Source of the DNA: an uncultured Verrucomicrobiae bacterium
GTDB taxonomy: Bacteria; Verrucomicrobiota; Verrucomicrobiia; Limisphaerales; Palsa-1400
DNA: 64,000 bases
Assembly: GCA_963702845.1 (NCBI GenBank)
Contig: OY969763.1
Coordinates: forward strand, 5,408,001-5,472,000
Direction of reading: 5' to 3'
The notes beneath the pieces were generated by a model that saw nothing but the letters and a program-made list of their open reading frames with translations, searched no databases and had not been told where the DNA came from. The translations under genes and the position numbers were made by a program. The stretch's first letter is position 1; each line of letters starts with the position of its first letter. Shown here one piece after another: positions 31 through 11,287 of the stretch.

Positions 31-1224
31 CTACCCTTCTACAACTCTCGCCGTCTCGCGGTCATATCGAAAGTTTTCTAAGGTGCCTTCGATGAGTTTG
101 TCGATTGCTTGTTCGATCGCAGGCAATGGGACAAGAAACCATTCCCTTGGTTCGACTTGGCCACCAAAGCGGTCTTTTAATTCCAAATCCAAACGAGCGC
201 CTTGGAAAAACTTATGCAGAAGTGCTTCAAGTCGTTTCCGGTTGATATTCGCCAGTTTAAAAGTTGCTACGATTTCCACGTCCGCAAGTAGATATGTAGG
301 ATCCCGTTTGGCACTACCGACGCGAGTTTTTATATCCGCGCCGGTCACACCAATTTTGTGAATAACCGACCTATGCTCTGCTACGAATGGGTGTTCTGAT
401 TTGCTTCGCAATACATAGATGTATCCGGTTGGCAGGTCATCGGGTTCCTCGATGCCAGAAAAAAGCGGCCCGAAATCTCGAGGCATGATGCGCCGGCTGG
501 CTTTGTCCTTGTTTAAAGCACGCTGCAACGAACGAAGGAGAAGGTCGCTTTCGGTAGCATTGTCATAAATGACGCGCAGCCTGCGATCAGGGCGGCCGTA
601 ATCGGTTACAAAAGGCTCGTCCATTTCAGCAACAACTATCTTTTGCCCATCCAAGATGAAGAGGTCGCCCTTTTTGACTTCGGCGTTGTCCTCGTATTTC
701 GTTGTTTGTCTCTGTCCTTCTTTGAGCTCGCTTTGAACTTGCTCGAAGATCAGTTGGAAATCGGCGAAGTCTTTGCAGGGATTTCGCTGAGCGATTTCTT
801 CTGCGGCTTTTATTTCGTCGCGGGGCCGAACGTGTACGAGCTTGGTGACATCATCTTTCGGTTCAACGTCAACGCCGAGCATCGACAGCAAAGCCTCGTC
901 GGTAGGTTCGTCTTTCAACTGCGCAACGGCATGATCTGCTTCAGCACCAAGCAATCCGCGTGAATCCAACTCTCGTAACACCGCGCGACATTCTGCCGAC
1001 GCGCGAATTTGATCGAGCCGAACAGCGTAAAGACGCTCGAAAATGTCGCGATTTTCTCCATGCTGAGGTACACGCCCATTTTCCTCAATGAATTGAACAA
1101 TTTCCTCATAGCCGGCAATGATGCGCTGTTCTCGGGCAGGCCGCCCGCCGCTCGAAGTGGGTTCGGTATCGACACCAAGTTCGCCTAAAAGGTCCAAGTC
1201 ATCGTCGTTAATACGGTCAGCCAT
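31..1224 (-). CDS. GIY-YIG nuclease family / T5orf172-domain protein (YeeC-like)
   Basis: C-terminal GYIYVLRS...HKIGVT...LEALLHKFF...PREWFLV motifs typical of T5orf172/GIY-YIG; last gene of a yeeABC-like operon; start overlaps the helicase stop. Confidence 0.85.
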   Translation of the reverse strand: MADRINDDDLDLLGELGVDTEPTSSGGRPAREQRIIAGYEEIVQFIEENGRVPQHGENRDIFERLYAVRLDQIRASAECRAVLRELDSRGLLGAEADHAVAQLKDEPTDEALLSMLGVDVEPKDDVTKLVHVRPRDEIKAAEEIAQRNPCKDFADFQLIFEQVQSELKEGQRQTTKYEDNAEVKKGDLFILDGQKIVVAEMDEPFVTDYGRPDRRLRVIYDNATESDLLLRSLQRALNKDKASRRIMPRDFGPLFSGIEEPDDLPTGYIYVLRSKSEHPFVAEHRSVIHKIGVTGADIKTRVGSAKRDPTYLLADVEIVATFKLANINRKRLEALLHKFFQGARLDLELKDRFGGQVEPREWFLVPLPAIEQAIDKLIEGTLENFRYDRETARVVEG

Positions 1225-3417
1225 TTTTTTCTTCCTTCGCTTTCTGTTGTAGGAAAGCCACCCCTTCTGCCATCCTTTTCTCCCATGGATCTTGCGCGGT
1301 TAGCGAAGGCAGCCTGCCCTTTTCCTGCTTGAACCGTAGTGCCCGCTTTGCCAATTCGCGTGCGTCCTCAATCGTTAGGTTAATCCGCCGACCAGCGATG
1401 ACTGCAGCTACCTGTTTTAGGCGTTCTTCAGTCATTGACTTGGCGAGAATGGTGTACGCTTCCCCAAAAGGATTGATGCGGTCGATAAGATCAATGTCAA
1501 GTTCGGTCACAGACAGAGCGAACTTCCGGATACCATCAATCAACGATGTGTTTGGCGACGCCACATTTCCTGACTCAGTCAGCAATTTTTTTGCCTGCTG
1601 AACGATATTTAGAGCAGCGATAGCGTGTTGCCGGACAGCTTCCTGATCTTCATCATTTAGATTTGGGAACTTCTCTTTTACAATTTTCCCCATTCGCAAT
1701 TGCGTCAGTTCCTCTGGAACCAACTCTTCGTCAAACATCCCTCGCTCGATCGCTTGTTTGTCCTGCACAAAAGCAGTAATCAACTCAGTCAAATCCTCGC
1801 GGCAGATGCGCTCTGCCTCCTGGCTTTTTGGCTCGGCAAGGCCTTTAATTTCAAGTTGGATTCGACCCGTGTCGGAGTTAATGCCAACATTACATTTGCT
1901 CGGATCATAACCACCTTCACCGTAATTGAACCCCTCGCTTGGACCGCTGTTCTGGTTTTTTGGCTTGAACTCAAATCGCGGTGCTAATACCTGCTCCATT
2001 AACAGGCTGGCAGCGATCGCCTTCAATGTATCATTGACCGCTTCGGTCACTGCGCCTTCGGTCGCGTCGGGTTCGGCAATAAGATTGGTGAAACGGGCAC
2101 GCGTTTTGCCGGGCGCATCGCGAGTAGTGCGACCTATGATCTGGTACAATTTCGGTGAGGCTCGAGCGATAACCAACGGTGAGGGCGTGTTCGCACCATA
2201 TCCAATCGAAACCCTCCTTAGCCATCCCTAGAGCAATGATAATATCGACGTGGTCTCGATTGTTCTTTTGCGCCGAGTCCTTAAGGGCTGATGAAACCTT
2301 CTCCCGTTTTGAAGGAGTATCATCTACCAAATCCGCGATTTTCAGGATTTTTCCGCTCGCCGTTTTCACGAGCTGAAAACCAGTTTGAGGGTCCGCACCT
2401 TGCCATTCACCAAGTTCCTCGATGATATGCTCAACCTCTCGAATCTTATCTTTTGTGCTCTCCCGAGCGTTGACGTTAGGTATGTGGACAATCGTTTTCT
2501 CGTAAGGGTTTAGAACGTTTAGAATCTCGCTGGTGAAATTGCCCGCGTAAAAATAGTAACCAATGTCAAGCTGCTTCAGGTATTCGTAACCGTTTAGCTG
2601 CTCGTAATAAGTGTAAGTTACCGTATCAAACCTTGATTCGTCATCGGGGTGTAATACCGCTTCGGCGTCCCCACGAAAGTACGAACCGGTCATCGCGACG
2701 ATATGTGTTTTGTCACGCGCCATCAACTGCCGGATGTTTTCACCCAGCCTGTTGTCAGGATTCGCGGAAATATGATGAAATTCGTCCACAGCAATGAGTC
2801 GGTCGTCGAATGCTTCCACGCCAAACCGATCTACGGCAAACCGAAACGTTGCATGAGTGCAAACCAACGTTTTATCTATGGTTTGCAAAAACTTCTGTAC
2901 CGAATCTACCTTTCCGTTGGTATCGGAACCGGGTGCATCGCACAGATTCCACTTCGGTTTGTACTTTCCAATCGGCCCAAAAGCCAAACTGGCTTAACGG
3001 CTCATCGTGGAAGCTGGCCCCAATCGATCTCTCCGGCACAACGATGATCGCCTGCTGCAAGTTTTGGTTTGTAAGCTTATCTAAGGCTACGAACATTAGA
3101 GCCCGGCTTTTTCCTGAAGCTGGAGGTGATTTAATAAGGAGGTACTGTTCGCCGCGCTTTTGCCAAACGCGTTCCTGCATTGGGCGCATTCCCATGGCGT
3201 TGGGTTTTGTCGAGCTACCGTTATGAGCATATTTTACGGTAACGCACGGGATCGATTGTTTACTACGAAAGACCTCACGAGATTGCTCGACATCGCCGGA
3301 TCGCTCGTGGTGACGAGCGAGCAGGTCAGGCAATTCCTTTTCAAACTGATCGCGTATCGTTTGATATTCGGCAGCTTTATCAAGCGAAATATGTTGCTGG
3401 CGGATGATACGTTTCAT
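1217..3417 (-). CDS. YeeB-like SF2 DEAD/DEAH helicase, split by two +1 frameshifts (~2959 and ~2143), with an extra ~50-aa N-terminal extension
   Basis: Walker A SPPASGKS, DEFHH, MTGS, KEGFD and QIIGRTTR are spread across ORFs 2872-3417, 2031-2987 and 1217-2176. Removing one base at each junction restores WKVQPKWNLC and TEIVQIIGR. Confidence 0.85.
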
Positions 3418-3692
3418 GGTCGTTTCTTTCTCGGCACGTCGAAGGCTGTAACGGGATAAATGGTATCGCGGTCGATTTGCTCGTAGGCAACCATCAGGTG
3501 TCGACCCGCGACGGTATCTCCAAAGACGACCGGCCTACCGGAGGACCGGCTAATATCTGTGCCTTTAGGATTCTGCACGGCCTCTTCGACTTCCTCCTTA
3601 GTTATGCAGTGCTTCTTCGCGATATGTTGCACGTTTCCATTTGGGTCGTCGTCGCGGTCCCAAAGTATGCAATTGAAGTTCGGCCAGCTCAT
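3414..3692 (-). CDS. BrnT/RelE-fold-like toxin
   Basis: 92 aa; WD...GNVQHIAKKHCITKEEVEEAV...GDTVAGRHLMVAYE...IYPVTAF pattern of BrnT-like ribonucleases; ATGA overlaps with both neighbours. Confidence 0.7.
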   Translation of the reverse strand: MSWPNFNCILWDRDDDPNGNVQHIAKKHCITKEEVEEAVQNPKGTDISRSSGRPVVFGDTVAGRHLMVAYEQIDRDTIYPVTAFDVPRKKRP

Positions 3693-6460
3693 TCGACGCA
3701 GCCTTTCGTGTTGCCACCGGTGCCTTTTTTAACTGGCTCCGTCCGCGAAGTCATCTGCGTGTAAAGTTCAAAAAGTTTTTCAAGTCGCTCAGTGTCATTC
3801 TTAAAACGACGACCGATATAGATTCGTTCTAAAGTCTCATCGGTCCGTTGGTGTGCTTCGCACAAGTTTAACGGCATCGTCTCACCGTCGTAAAGTTCGG
3901 CTATTGTTGCCGGGAAATGAGACTCGCGTGCTAACAGGATTTCTTCGGCGCACCGTGTTAATTCTGCTTTGTTTCGCTCGGTAAGCATGGGAACCGGGAA
4001 AGTGTTCCAACCCAATGTATTCGAATACGAAAACCGCATTTCCAATCTTACGCAAACTGTACCAATCCAAACCCAATGGAGGCGGGACGCAACGAGCGCC
4101 ATTGTCCAAAGAGGTTGATCATACAATGCAAAGCACTTGTTCGAAACTACACTATCGTTTCTGAAGAGATCGACCGGCAGAACATCCCGATTCTCGGACG
4201 ATACAACAGGGATAGCTAGCAGGTGACGCTCACTTCGGTTCATTTCGCGGAACTGATGCAGGCGTTTAACCATGCCGTTTGACATTGCGTCCTTGGAGTT
4301 TGCGCGTTCCTTCGCACCACTTAGTAGACGCGCCCGAATGTCTGCGATCGCGACCACGTGGGGCTCGGGCTCGTTCTCGAACCAGAGACAGTAACGCGGT
4401 CTCCCGTTGATTACTTCGGTGGATCCATAGAAGCGTTTCACGTATTCTTTAGGAAAACCCGATTGAAGGTATCTATTTCTTTCGTTTTGGCTCAGCAACA
4501 GGTGTGCCGAAAGTCCATAATAGTTGCCTTTAACCATCGCAGGCACAGCCGAAATCGGCCGGCTTGCCGACGTGACCCAATGATTCGGCTGCGGCAGCAG
4601 GTAGGCATTTATGTTTTCGGCTTCTACCTTGAGATCACCATCAAAAATGATGGCCTTTCCTGTCTTAAATGCCGCGCCAATCACTACGACCGTCACACCG
4701 GCATCGTGCGCAGCCAGATTGCTCCACTTGAACGAACGCACGGCAAAAACAAACCTCAATCCACGATTAAAAAGTGGCAGCCAAAAATTCGAAACGTGCT
4801 GCCCTTGACAAATGCTATTCGTCGCGACAAATGCGAATTGAGCAGAGCTAAGTGCAGCGAACTCATACGCCTTGTAAAACCAGCCGCAAACGTAATCAAG
4901 CAGTCCCCATTTTTCCACCTTGCCCGCGAAGAGCCGCCGAAGGTCTTCTTTCTGTTGCAGCGATTTTCGCGCGTTTCCCTTGTACGGGGGGTTGCCGCAA
5001 ATGTAAATTTCTCCACCTTCGTTTTGAAACTGAATTTCGGCCTGGTCTAATGGTGTATTGAATAGATCATCGCCTTGGAGTTTCACCACCTTGCCTTCCG
5101 GTCGGCATACACTGACCCAATCAAGGCGCAGTGCGTTTCCACACGTAATCCAGTTCGCAGCTTCCAACGGCAGAAATTCGGCAAGAGCTAGTTTTTGCCC
5201 ACGATAAAGTACGTCACATTGATACTCGGCAATAATTAGCGCGAGGCGCGCGATTTCGGCGGGAAAGTCCCGAAGTTCGATACCGCGAAAATTCGTAAGT
5301 GGTATTTCGGATGAGTGTTCCAGTTCATTGCGGCGCCGATTGATTTCCGCTTCAATTTCTCGCATTGCCTTGTATGCGATAACAAGGAAATTGCCCGAGC
5401 CACACGCTGGATCGAAAACGCGGATTCGAGAAAGGCGCTGGCGAACGTTGAGAAGCTTGCGCGGATTGTCTCCTGCTTCCTGCAGTTTCGCCCGAAGATC
5501 ATCTAGGAAAAGCGGGTTTAGAACCTTGAGTATATTGGGGACACTTGTGTAATGCATGCCCAGCGCACCGCGTTCCTCATCGTCGGCGACGGCTTGGATC
5601 ATGGAGCCGAAAATATCCGGATTGATTTTTGTCCAGTCTAACCCACCAACGTGAAGAAGATATGAGCGCGCGATCTTGCTGAATCGAGGAACGTCGAGGG
5701 AGCCCGAAAAAAGGCCGCCATTTACGTACGGAAATAAGTTCGCCCAACTACGGATTTTGGCCGACTCGCGATCCGTAAGCTTGGTGTTCATCGAGCGAAA
5801 TAACTCGGCGATTACCTCATGTGTGTTGGAGGAATCCCTCGCGCTCATTTGATCGATCGTGGCTGTAAACAGGCCCTTTCCGTGAAAGATGTCAGTGTCT
5901 TCGGCAAAGAAGCAGAAGATGAGTCGCGCCATAAAATGATTCATGTCATGACGGCGTTGCTCAGTGCCCCAATCTGGATTGTCCTTGAGCAACTCAATGT
6001 AAAGGCGGTTCAGGCGGCCGGTGGCCTTGATGTCAAACGCGTTTTCCCGAATCTGTTTAACCGTGGTAATTCCAGCGAGCGTTAAGAAGAAGCCGAAATG
6101 GTCGGAAAAGTCGGCGTAAGCACAGGCAACGGTTTCGCCGTCGCCTACGTTTTCGGCCTCGAAGGTTTTGCCATCGGTCGCGAGGATGAATTTCGCCTTC
6201 TGACGGATAGTTGCGGGGCTTTGTCGCAGCGCCCCGAGCGTGGCGGTCACTTCACCTTCAGCGCAAACTTTAATGTGTATGTTATTCCGTTGAAGAATCG
6301 CTCCAGGCAAGTCGGACTGATTTGAGTTCCCGCTGCGCAGGCGTTTGATTGTCGTATCCTTGTTTCCAAATGCCTCAAGAAAGGCGTACGGAAAGTTGGC
6401 TGCGTCAAAGGGCGCTGCGGCAAGGTTTGAAACTGCTTCTTCGATCTCAACTGCGTTCAT
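3689..6460 (-). CDS. MmeI/YeeA-like N6-adenine DNA methyltransferase with C-terminal target recognition domain
   Basis: GMHYTS, motif I FDPACGSGNF, motif IV GNPPY, C-terminal YSNTLGWNTFPVP...LYD...AHQ..D...E pattern; N-terminus is YeeA-like (MNAVEIEEAVS). Confidence 0.92.
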   Translation of the reverse strand: MNAVEIEEAVSNLAAAPFDAANFPYAFLEAFGNKDTTIKRLRSGNSNQSDLPGAILQRNNIHIKVCAEGEVTATLGALRQSPATIRQKAKFILATDGKTFEAENVGDGETVACAYADFSDHFGFFLTLAGITTVKQIRENAFDIKATGRLNRLYIELLKDNPDWGTEQRRHDMNHFMARLIFCFFAEDTDIFHGKGLFTATIDQMSARDSSNTHEVIAELFRSMNTKLTDRESAKIRSWANLFPYVNGGLFSGSLDVPRFSKIARSYLLHVGGLDWTKINPDIFGSMIQAVADDEERGALGMHYTSVPNILKVLNPLFLDDLRAKLQEAGDNPRKLLNVRQRLSRIRVFDPACGSGNFLVIAYKAMREIEAEINRRRNELEHSSEIPLTNFRGIELRDFPAEIARLALIIAEYQCDVLYRGQKLALAEFLPLEAANWITCGNALRLDWVSVCRPEGKVVKLQGDDLFNTPLDQAEIQFQNEGGEIYICGNPPYKGNARKSLQQKEDLRRLFAGKVEKWGLLDYVCGWFYKAYEFAALSSAQFAFVATNSICQGQHVSNFWLPLFNRGLRFVFAVRSFKWSNLAAHDAGVTVVVIGAAFKTGKAIIFDGDLKVEAENINAYLLPQPNHWVTSASRPISAVPAMVKGNYYGLSAHLLLSQNERNRYLQSGFPKEYVKRFYGSTEVINGRPRYCLWFENEPEPHVVAIADIRARLLSGAKERANSKDAMSNGMVKRLHQFREMNRSERHLLAIPVVSSENRDVLPVDLFRNDSVVSNKCFALYDQPLWTMALVASRLHWVWIGTVCVRLEMRFSYSNTLGWNTFPVPMLTERNKAELTRCAEEILLARESHFPATIAELYDGETMPLNLCEAHQRTDETLERIYIGRRFKNDTERLEKLFELYTQMTSRTEPVKKGTGGNTKGCVE

Positions 6461-7165: not shown

Positions 7166-10100
7166 TCACCGGCGCGTGGCTGCCAACTGCGCATCGAGAC
7201 GTTTAGATGAAACGGAAATTGCGGTGCCGAGCTCTTGCGCGAACAGAGAGACTTTATACTCCTCGACCATCCAACGATAAGTGTTGAGTTGGGTGCGCTG
7301 TTCGGTGGACCGGATTGGTTCCGCTTCAAGCTGTTTCAACGCTTCGACATAAGGCGCGAGTTGGCGCAATCGCTCCTGATTCTTAACTGGATTCAAGGCG
7401 GCGCGCTCAGCTCGAATCAGGAGCGCTTTGAGATAACGAGGCAAGTGCGTCAATCGTTCGTAATCGATTCGTTCCAGAAAACGCGATGGCATGAGATGAG
7501 TCAATTCATCGGTCAGCGGATTCACGCCCGCTGGACTCACGCCCGTTGGACCGGCAGCTCCAATTTGGCTGAAGGATGAAAGCGTCTGAGCACGTGGCTT
7601 CGTTATGGGAACGGACGCGCCAATTTTTTGTTGTACTTGTTGTCGCAATTGCAGAATCGGCCCGAGACGATCGATGAATTGCTGGGCAAGTCCGGGCAGC
7701 CGTTCTCGCGCAGCGGCGACGGCGGCTTGAAAATCTTTTTGGGTCAATGCGGCTAATGGTTCTGCCGGCAAAAGATAATGCTTCAGATGTTCCAGTGCAG
7801 TTTCGCGCAACTCCTCACTATCGCCCAGCGGCGCATAAAGCGCGTCGTAACGAGCCAAGGCGCGCAAATCTTTTTCCAACCACGCAAGATCTTTTTGAAT
7901 GGCGAGTTCAACAAGACGTTGCGTTCCGAGCAGACTCGAGTTTCGCGCAAGATCGGCGCTGCGAAACAAACGCAGGTTCACCACTCCTTCTGCGAATTCC
8001 AATCCCGGCCACGCGTAGAGAGGGAGGCCCGACCCTTCGCTGACCGTGATGCGTTCAGGCAAATCGCCGCACGTCCATTCCGTAACGCCAAAGCGTTCCC
8101 ATTTCTCAGCGGCACGCGTCCAATCTGCCGAGTCGGATTTCGGCGACGGCTCGGTTTTGGCTTGCTGGAGATTTCGTTGCAGTTGCGCGAGGTCGCGTCC
8201 GCTGCCGAGCGATTTGCGATTGTGATCGAGAATGTCGATGCGCGGTCGCAGGTGCGCCGGCAAGGCATTGGCAGGCCATGCCGAAACTGGAACTTCCACG
8301 CCATAACGCTTGTGAATAAAGCTGGCGAGATCCTGGAGAAACGAATTTCCCGACGGCTGAAAGTCGCTGACGATCTCGGAGACCTTCGGCGGAAAGGGCA
8401 TCAACTGCTTTCGAATCGCCTTTGGAAGTGCGCGTAAAAGTTCGCCGATCATTTCTTCGCGCAAACCGGGCACGGCCCACTCGATCAACGAAGCCGAAGT
8501 GGACTGCGCAATGGCGAAAGGTAATTCGATCGTCACGCCATCATGTTCTTCGCCTGGAGCATACGCATAAGCGAGCGGTACTGGCTGGCCTCCGATCGGC
8601 ACCACTTCGGGAAAAGCGTTCGCATCGAATTGCAACGTTTCGCCGCCGGCTAAATCAGCTTCAGAAATACAGAGACGTTCTTGCGCACCGGGTTCGCGCA
8701 AGAAACGGTTCAGGTCGTGAATCGAAGAAACGTTCTCGAGATGCTTCGCGTAAAACTCACTCAACACCTGGTCGAAATCACCGAGGTCATACTTACGAAC
8801 GCGCGTGCGCCAGTTCTCGATCTTTTCGCGAATGCTGCGGTTGTGAGCGAGAAAATTATATTGAGGCGGCAACTCTGGTTTGTTCTCCGCCGTCGGAGTG
8901 AGAATGCGAACTTCATCGCGGTCGGCGTCGCGCTCATCGCTTTGTCGAGCGCGCGAAGGAAATAAACTCTCCTCCACCAAAGCGGAGCGAATGAAAATTG
9001 CGGTGGCTTCTTTCGCGTTGATATTCCCGTAGGCAACTTTGCGACGCTGCACTTCCAATCCGTGCAACGTGATGATTTCTTCAACGAGCACATTTCCGGC
9101 AATTGGCGTTCCAATGCGGATTCTGGTGCGTGACTTTGCAGCAATGCGGTGCGAGTTGAAAAATCCATTGCGGATCAATGCCCGCCAAAGTGCGCGCAAA
9201 CAGTTGTGACGTTTCCACAATTTCCCCAGCGACAATCCATTGAGGCTGATTGGATTTTGGTTTCGGCGGCGGCTTGGTGCCTTTGGTGATTTGTTTTTTC
9301 TGCGGCTCGCCGCGCGAATAAAGAGCCGAACCAGGAAACACGGAGACCATGCGGTTGCCCGCCGCCTTGTAATTGTTGCGCTCTTCGAAACGCGCGACGT
9401 GGCCGATCAGTCCGGCGAGAATCGAGCGATGGATCGCGTCGTAAGCGGCGTTGCTCTCGTTCAGCTTGAACGTGCCGAGATCCTCGAGCGCATCGTGCAA
9501 TTGGGAATAAACGTCCTGCCATTCGCGCATCCGCAAGTAGGAAAGAAATGTTGGCTTGCAGAATTTGCGACGCTGGCCTTGCGTGCGCAGACGATCCCAC
9601 TGGTCATGAACGGCGTTCCAAATATTGAGCAGCGAAAGAAAATCCGATTGTGGATCGGTGAACTTTTGTGCGCGGCGGCGGCAGCCTCTTTTTGGTCGAG
9701 CGGACGTTCGCGGGGATCTTGAATGCTCAAACCGGCGGCGATGATCAATAATTCCGCGTCGCGTGTTCGTGCTGCGATTGGAGCAACATGCGGCCAAGCG
9801 TGGGATCAATCGGAAGCCGCGCGAGGTCTTCGCCGAGACGCGTGAGTGCGCGATGTGCATCCAGCGCGCCGAGTTCCTGCAAGCAGCGCATAGCCATTTG
9901 CAATCGCAGCGGGCGCGGGCGGTTGGACGAACGGAAATGTTTCGATGTCGCCGAGATGAAACGCTTTCATCCGCAGAATGACTTCCGCGAGATTGGCGCG
10001 TTGAATTTCCGGCTGCGTGAATGCGGGACGCGCGTTGAAATCCTCCTCGGAATAAAGCCGAATACAAACGCCGTCCTCGACGCGTCCGGCGCGACCTTTT

Positions 10101-11287
10101 CGTTGGTTCGCGCTGCTCTGCGAAACGGGCTCCACGGGCAAACGTTTCGTGCGCGTTCGCGGGTTGTAACGACTGATGCGCGCAAGTCCGGCGTCAATGA
10201 CATAACGGATTCCCGGAATGGTCAGCGATGTTTCCGCGATGTTCGTGGCGATAACAATTTTGCGTCGCGATGAAGGAGCGAAAACACGTTGTTGATCTCC
10301 CGCGCTGAGCCGGCCGAACAACGGAATCACCTCCGCTTCACCGGAAAAACGCCCTTCGAGTTGATCGCCGGTTTCGCGAATGTCGCGTTCCCCCGGCATG
10401 AAAATCAGCACGTCGCCGGAACTGATCTCATAAAGTATGCGCTCGGCTGCTTGCACTGCAGCATCCACGTAACTCATATCCCCGCGTTCCTCGGAGACGG
10501 CGTCGAGCGGTTGATACTGAACTTCGACGGGATAAAGCCGTCCGGAAACTTCGATGATCGGCGCGTCGCCGAAATGGCGCGAAAACATCTCCGTATCAAT
10601 CGTCGCCGAGGTGATGATCAGTTTTAAATCGTGACGGCGCGCCAGCAAGCCTTTCAAGTGGCCGAGCAGGAAATCGATGTTCAAACTGCGCTCGTGCGCT
10701 TCATCAATAATGATCGCGTTGTATTCCGAGAGATCAGGATCGCCCTGCGTTTCGGCGAGCAAAATTCCATCGGTCATCAGCTTGATATAAGTTTGCGCAC
10801 TGGACCGATCATCGAAACGGATTTTGCATCCGACTTCACGACCCCAACTGACGTTCAATTCTTCCGCAATACGTCGCGAAATAGAAAGCGCGGCGACGCG
10901 ACGCGGTTGGGTGCAACCAATTTTCGCTTCGATGCCCAACCCGGCTTCGAGACACATCTTGGGAATCTGCGTGGTCTTTCCTGAACCCGTTTCACCAGCA
11001 ATAACGACCACTTGATGCGCCCGAATCGCGGCAACGATTTCATCTTTCCGAGGAGTGATCGGAAGATCCGGCGGATACGTCACTCGCGGAACCTTGAGCC
11101 GACGCTCTTCGCGCAAAGCGATGGAGGTGCGAACTTGTTGGAGCAATCGATCCAACAACGCATCGCGCTGACCCGGATGATGTCGATCGCGCAGCAATCG
11201 TCCGACCCGCCGACCGAGTCGAACCCAGTCGGGCAAGAGACATTGCGGTAGCAGCTTTTTTAGTTCTTCGATTCGAGCGTCAACCAT
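7166..11287 (-). CDS. hrpA: ATP-dependent RNA helicase HrpA, with several frameshifts at ~9.1-9.9 kb
   Basis: [41 protein letters not shown]-terminal DUF3418-like region (WAVPGLREE...[19 protein letters not shown]); pieces in ORFs 9806-11287, 9461-9748, 9081-10067 and 7166-9235. Confidence 0.92.

Follow-up and report, generated by a model that had tools for sequence, protein, structure and literature searches.

Why would a restriction-like yeeABC operon carry a small toxin-like gene between its methyltransferase and its helicase, and what are the extra residues with which that helicase begins? We examined these questions in a 64,000-nucleotide stretch of DNA from an uncultured Verrucomicrobiae bacterium (the window) and in related loci from other genomes, metagenomes and plasmids, combining homology searches, locus surveys, codon comparisons, phylogenetics and structure prediction.

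Locus architecture and recurrence of the fusion

The locus lies entirely on the minus strand and comprises the following features (window coordinates):

3689..6460, minus strand: intact yeeA/dnmA-type gene (923 aa) for an MmeI-like N6-adenine methyltransferase that includes a target-recognition domain; matched above cut-off by five Pfam MmeI domains
3414..3692, minus strand: 92-aa BrnT/DUF4258-like (BECR/RelE-fold) putative RNase toxin; weak Pfam BrnT match, fold match
3301..3417, minus strand: peptide of antitoxin origin (by homology), forming helicase residues 1-39, with toxin binding predicted by co-folding
3253..3300, minus strand: variable linker, helicase residues 40-55, with neither an in-frame start codon nor a stop in the window copy
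1217..3252, minus strand: YeeB SF2 helicase core, broken in the window by two single-base insertions
31..1224, minus strand: yeeC T5orf172/GIY-YIG-type nuclease, 397 aa; Pfam T5orf172 and MUG113 above cut-off

The available text of Morgan 2009 (PMC2731913) describes the gene order YeeA-YeeB-YeeC, and the window shares with YeeA(DnmA)-YeeB-YeeC an MmeI-like methyltransferase, an SF2 helicase and a GIY-YIG/T5orf172 gene in the same order; PADLOC matched the window yeeA to REase_MTase_IIG (1e-260). Unlike the operon as set out in that text, the window adds a toxin gene between yeeA and yeeB and an antitoxin-like peptide on YeeB. As claimed in an earlier note based on the sequence alone, the 92-aa gene has an ATGA overlap on each side, and both 4-nt overlaps were located, at 3689-3692 with yeeA and at 3414-3417 with the helicase. 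The note had also put the additional helicase residues at about 50, in the absence of a free antitoxin ORF; counting from the start codon at 3417 (minus strand), we found 55 residues ahead of the IPxV strand, and no separate antitoxin ORF follows the window toxin. In unfused YeeB proteins the lead-in to this strand is short, a few residues and no more than about 15.

The operon's gene order was thus correctly described, but the earlier note had overlooked two frameshifts in the helicase. Single extra bases near 2960 and 2144, identified by reference to intact relatives, split the window helicase into three ORFs (181, 318 and 319 aa), with the peptide-helicase junction remaining in frame. In most relatives the YeeB core is intact (723-734 aa), and Pfam DEAD and ResIII were matched on the intact relative P0002. 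The source genome was assembled as one 6.03-Mb contig. Motif searches located 23 marker genes in it, and 10 of them, including RpoC and EF-G, are truncated relative to their expected lengths; the adjacent hrpA-like helicase gene (7166-11287, minus strand) is also broken into three ORFs, which fits indel errors. Because of these truncated markers and the split hrpA-like gene, the breaks in the window helicase are probably assembly errors. The window helicase may be a pseudogene; since the peptide lies at the N-terminus, damage further down the gene would leave it intact.

The same architecture is found elsewhere. In a Chthoniobacterales MAG (L016), a gene for the same toxin precedes an uninterrupted fused helicase of 728 aa, the junction being 12 nt shorter than in the window. 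NCBI annotation places the start of this helicase later (681 aa vs 728), an example of how automatic annotation conceals the fused peptide. When residues 1-62 of the L016 helicase were used as a protein query, 14 of 27 candidates matched, every match being a fused helicase; the window peptide as query returned the window's own protein alone among 22 candidates. Of the 120 YeeB proteins nearest the L016 helicase, the peptide is present in 28 and absent from 92, and no other long extension was seen in any of them. From this set, 18 of the 28 were new, and fused protein clusters total 32. Scanning metagenomes with a DNA pattern that covers the peptide and the helicase start gave 14 loci, including one near-identical pair; together with L016 and the window they make up the 16 fused loci analysed below. 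The fusion is rare: the pattern was present in 1 of 401 genomes of the phylum, and while YeeB matches were obtained in 3/101, 3/401, 14/351 and 9/351 genomes, fused copies occurred in two of these only (G000 and G817).

An indel-rich assembly with so many truncated markers, and with two further frameshifts in the helicase itself, invites the suspicion that a sequencing indel joined a short separate antitoxin ORF to the helicase, an outcome that the earlier note had itself raised. To this we give almost no credence. The same in-frame fusion occurs in 15 independent loci and in all 32 protein clusters, and the linkers, 7-17 aa long in fused relatives, differ from one another by whole codons; for the family, these independent loci refute a frameshift artefact. 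We conclude that the fusion occurs naturally and is conserved.

The toxin, the peptide and their predicted contact

The small gene had been called BrnT-like, which holds for its predicted fold but not for its sequence score. The window toxin matches Pfam BrnT with E = 0.0039 and 17.9 bits, below the gathering cut-off of 34.5, and all 51 of its 51 relatives give a weak BrnT family match at E ≤ 0.1. Its structure model (pLDDT 89.5), compared with 48,161 chains, was closest to 7vd7_A, a Salmonella toxin-antitoxin toxin (Z 8.9, rmsd 2.9, 82 aligned), and then to BrnT 3u97_A (Z 8.4, rmsd 2.6, 75 aligned), with the third-ranked match at Z 6.2. PADLOC and NCBIfam searches with the window toxin gave no match, and PDB sequence searches found no relative. 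In the Atlas, the toxin is positioned near DUF4258-like clusters, a family termed undescribed in the accessible part of PMC11980606. Residues W11, D12, P17, G19, N20, H23, S48, P54 and G58 are invariant across the 51 relatives. For BrnT, the available sections of PMC13284704 name K16, H17 and R72 as residues required for toxicity. In the window toxin, K27-H28 correspond to K16-H17 by position only, not by residue-level alignment; H28 is conserved in 87% of fused-locus toxins and 100% of free toxins, position 27 is variable, and an equivalent of R72 could not be placed, the PDB sequence search having given no BrnT alignment. From the modelled fold we infer that the toxin is an RNase. BrnT/BrnA of Brucella and RelS/RelI (PMC11980606, PMC13284704) are alike in offering the closest folds (BrnT and 7vd7) and in being toxin-first. 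Unlike BrnT, the window toxin scores under the Pfam BrnT cut-off, and its cognate antitoxin is of XRE-HTH type, where BrnA, going by the accessible portions of these papers, is an RHH protein.

The identity of that cognate antitoxin comes from the relatives of the toxin. Across 59 toxin-relative loci, mostly from Planctomycetota, 53 encode a homologue of the helicase peptide (identity 33-55%, E ≤ 2.1e-5), nearly always directly downstream of the toxin and as the N-terminus of a roughly 112-aa protein. This free antitoxin ends in an XRE-type HTH (Pfam HTH_3), so that a resemblance which the earlier note had suggested, to the N-termini of HTH antitoxins following such toxins, proves to be one of homology. 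Fused helicases keep residues 1-39 of the antitoxin alone, and the 16 fused loci gave no HTH match. Leaving out pattern-fixed positions, we compared column conservation between 26 fused N-termini and 35 free antitoxins: residues 1-39 scored 0.76 and 0.78, respectively, and residues 40-50 scored 0.35 and 0.68, although this comparison was ungapped and overstates the drop. This drop past residue 39 of the fused proteins coincides with the end of the interface predicted below. Taken together, these comparisons support the view that the peptide corresponds to the N-terminal half of an antitoxin of the XRE-HTH type. A second copy of the antitoxin was not found in genomes G000 (90% complete) and G817. 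An in-frame start codon after residue 29 and before the core is absent in 6 of the 16 fused loci, including the window, and unfused YeeB therefore cannot be made there.

A division of labour of this kind within an antitoxin is known from Vibrio cholerae, where, according to the accessible text of PMC5416850, the N-terminal peptide of HigA2 alone neutralises VcHigB2. HigBA2 resembles the predicted parent pair in being toxin-first, with a RelE-superfamily fold and an antitoxin composed of an N-terminal binding segment and a C-terminal HTH. It differs in that the window toxin appears to belong to another subfamily (the fold matches are weak) and in that, in the fused loci, the antitoxin HTH is replaced by the restriction helicase YeeB.

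Co-folding of the toxin with the peptide, one of the checks the earlier note had proposed, predicted binding, with a score of 0.77 vs 0.30 for the best control. Among solved complexes 116 of 157 attained the score mark, as did 2 of 215 mismatched pairs; these counts apply only approximately, our own alignment having been used. Contacts agreed between runs by at least 93%, with partner pLDDT of at least 82. The predicted interface takes up peptide residues 1-40, which are modelled over the conserved sheet face of the toxin, including H23, S48, R53 and T82; H28, the position-equivalent of BrnT H17, is absent from the listed interface residues. The model supports binding of the toxin by the peptide, and the pass may reflect similarity to solved toxin-antitoxin complexes. 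A model of the whole fused helicase (pTM 0.34) was too poor for use. The suggestion that the helicase itself holds the toxin is supported by homology, by selection (see below) and by this structure model, and we regard the fused architecture, with the toxin tethered by the helicase, as very probable.

Tethering need not imply release. Predicted stable binding, coupled translation and conservation of the small protein would equally be expected if the BrnT-fold protein were a nuclease subunit docked on the helicase, acting on phage RNA or nearby nucleic acid and never set free, and the position of H28 outside the listed interface residues would suit such a subunit. What makes a docked effector improbable is the peptide, which is unchanged relative to canonical antitoxins and is modelled on the conserved sheet face (H23, S48, R53, T82), as an inhibitor binds.

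Linkage, selection and history of the fused loci

A survey of yeeABC loci, also suggested in the earlier note, tied the toxin closely to the fusion. An intact toxin gene lies directly upstream of fused yeeB in 16/16 loci, the toxin being absent from the search pattern; yeeA follows further upstream in 15 of the 16, and yeeC is found downstream in all six fused loci long enough to show it. The 32 unfused yeeB loci contain neither toxin nor peptide; in one of them the upstream sequence amounts to only 148 nt. Among 105 pairs from 15 loci, the toxin had a median dN/dS of 0.17 (89 unsaturated pairs), the peptide 0.15 (93) and the helicase start 0.07 (84), and pN ≥ pS was seen in 0/105 pairs. The peptide value was 0.18 when pattern-fixed codons were left out, and linker codons 40-46 gave 0.55. 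Toxin divergence across the fused loci is considerable (mean pS 0.64, near-saturated at synonymous sites; mean pN 0.20). Toxin and peptide are co-inherited and under purifying selection.

Two departures from the usual layout were observed upstream. In L081 (1-690), yeeA is replaced by another gene ahead of the toxin, which we take to be RhuM-like, and the contig ends there. In L016 (1219-4004) and L078, yeeA is frameshifted, through error or decay, with the toxin and fused helicase intact.

A sparse tree was built from toxin plus peptide, leaving out 15 toxin loci whose toxins were unparsed or short and 7 that lacked a usable antitoxin. It sets the fused loci together on one side of a weakly supported branch (79) and in two well-supported groups, so that one or two origins are allowed. 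The sparse helicase tree, with four short helicases left out, also has them on one side of a branch (support 98). A single origin of the fusion, with which both sparse trees agree, is not supported by the dense helicase tree (137 rows), and we make no claim to a single vertical lineage: in the dense tree the fused state takes 11 changes, at least 8 of them forced, and unfused YeeB proteins that branch within fused groups have ordinary N-termini. Because the dense tree needs 11 changes, the cassette is, by this phylogeny, repeatedly lost or exchanged, and the fused state, scattered as it is over the YeeB tree, is therefore dispensable.

The slot between yeeA and yeeB also accommodates other genes, with inserts in 8 of the 22 measurable unfused loci. 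Given the many unrelated passengers, location alone implies little. A Synechococcus plasmid (L093:3119-3648) carries an intact two-gene TA pair in the slot (Unstab_antitox plus a ParE-family toxin), and two plasmids have a HigA-family antitoxin gene that runs into the start of yeeA (L089:379-657 and L094:770-1063). Assorted uncharacterised inserts occur in L101, L107, L116, L121, L089, L091 and L092; a Pfam scan of three yeeA-yeeB inserts gave no match, and those of L101 and L121 are presumably YhcG/DUF1016-like. In L073, a tRNA gene lies just past yeeC.

A profile search with the peptide returned 489 representatives at E ≤ 0.001. The best 150 of the 489 consist of 35 HTH antitoxins, 4 YeeB proteins, 73 proteins with short tails and 38 with long unrelated tails; with the peptide on so many unrelated long-tailed proteins, such fusions may arise easily. 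One could accordingly picture the locus as a frozen accident, in which a deletion fused the remnant of a TA pair to yeeB and the cassette was carried on without benefit: one-off fusions of the peptide to other tails are many (all 10 of those checked were singletons), and the yeeA-yeeB slot is an insertion hotspot. A useless toxin could decay cost-free, yet it is intact in 16/16 fused loci, and we find a history without benefit highly improbable.

From antitoxin to candidate guard of YeeABC

Homology, synteny and codon comparisons together show the capture of a TA pair, the loss of its HTH, the fusion to YeeB, co-inheritance and selection. In the mechanism we propose, a toxin-first type II toxin-antitoxin pair entered the yeeA-yeeB accessory slot. 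The antitoxin then shed its DNA-binding HTH half, its toxin-binding N-terminal 39 residues becoming the N-terminus of YeeB, as homology and synteny show. Translational coupling would ensure that toxin and fused YeeB are produced together. YeeB would then serve as the antitoxin, and probably as the only one for this toxin, with the peptide covering the toxin (as predicted by co-folding) and presumably neutralising it. If, during phage infection, YeeB became bound, remodelled or degraded, or ceased to be made, the toxin would be freed, and the released RNase would halt growth, backing up the restriction-like YeeABC system. The argument for release is that a toxin kept under selection must be useful when it is let go. 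We give the explanation as a whole, with fused YeeB as antitoxin and phage-triggered release of the toxin, an even chance. Its functional core, the toxin as an anti-phage guard of YeeABC, is plausible if not quite probable; the 92 of 120 nearest helicases that do without the peptide count against it.

The main rival to a guard role is addiction, which accounts for the same genomic pattern. Here the toxin and fused peptide would do no more than keep the yeeABC island in place: if the operon were lost or silenced, YeeB would be depleted and the toxin freed, with no sensing of phage. The same co-occurrence and purifying selection would be expected, and repeated gain and loss of the cassette, the presence of other TA genes within or ahead of yeeABC operons on plasmids, and the tRNA gene just beyond yeeC in L073 would all be in keeping with it. 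However, addiction usually requires a short-lived antitoxin, and fusion to a 680-aa folded enzyme should prolong the life of the antitoxin, while loss of the HTH also abolishes autoregulation. An unfused pair would moreover be equally suitable, yet yeeB was found in the fetched flanks of 0/58 unfused toxin loci. We consider addiction unlikely on these grounds.

The preferred reading, in which the toxin guards YeeABC, has parallels among restriction-modification (RM) systems, which PrrC and Ronin guard according to the available portions of PMC12707154 and 10.1101/2023.04.06.535777. As in PrrC-EcoprrI and Ronin, going by the same portions, an effector gene lies inside a restriction-type locus and is thought to be held by subunits of the system. 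The difference is that the window effector is a predicted 92-aa BECR fold, which would be held by a type II antitoxin peptide on the helicase. The likeness to PrrC, which the earlier note had invoked, is one of analogy, and the fused locus is a member of neither PrrC nor Ronin. Whether YeeABC itself defends against phage seems to differ between hosts in the accessible texts: V. crassostreae yeeAB is credited with phage resistance (10.1101/2021.05.05.442762), and B. subtilis YeeABC gave no phage protection (PMC9973331). The system is widespread, and its mechanism is still called speculative in the portions of the literature available.

Each part of the locus falls in a known class, and guards of RM systems are known; what appears to be new is the antitoxin-helicase fusion. 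In the literature covered, which took in few subscription papers, we found no restriction helicase bearing an antitoxin domain. Fused toxin-antitoxin genes are described in PMC11980606, with no antitoxin-helicase fusion in its accessible sections, and the fusion is also absent from those of 10.1101/2024.10.26.620412 and PMC13284704. The free pairs and the unfused and fused helicases are living intermediates that would show a TA pair being built into a restriction-like system, and if the toxin reports the state of YeeB, it would offer a simple growth read-out for activators and inhibitors of YeeABC.

A broader version of this mechanism would make the 39-residue peptide a portable tether, with YeeB as both sensor and antitoxin, from which foreign DNA or a phage inhibitor strips the RNase, aborting infection, and with the same tag perhaps on other proteins; we hold this as possible but rather doubtful. 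The peptide may act as a tag that moves between proteins, or as a sponge with which phages take up the toxin. It heads a range of unrelated proteins (P0121, P0171, P0101, P0160 and others), and the peptide-headed proteins include a phage-like DNA methyltransferase, an RNA ligase and a YezG-like immunity protein; one of them has an apparent zinc-finger antitoxin domain. A phage-borne peptide was not confirmed: IMG/VR scans and a plasmid search gave none, and the search of GenBank phages gave one match with E = 0.6. On one IMG/VR viral contig (L086:2950-3566), a distant toxin is paired with an HTH-type partner.
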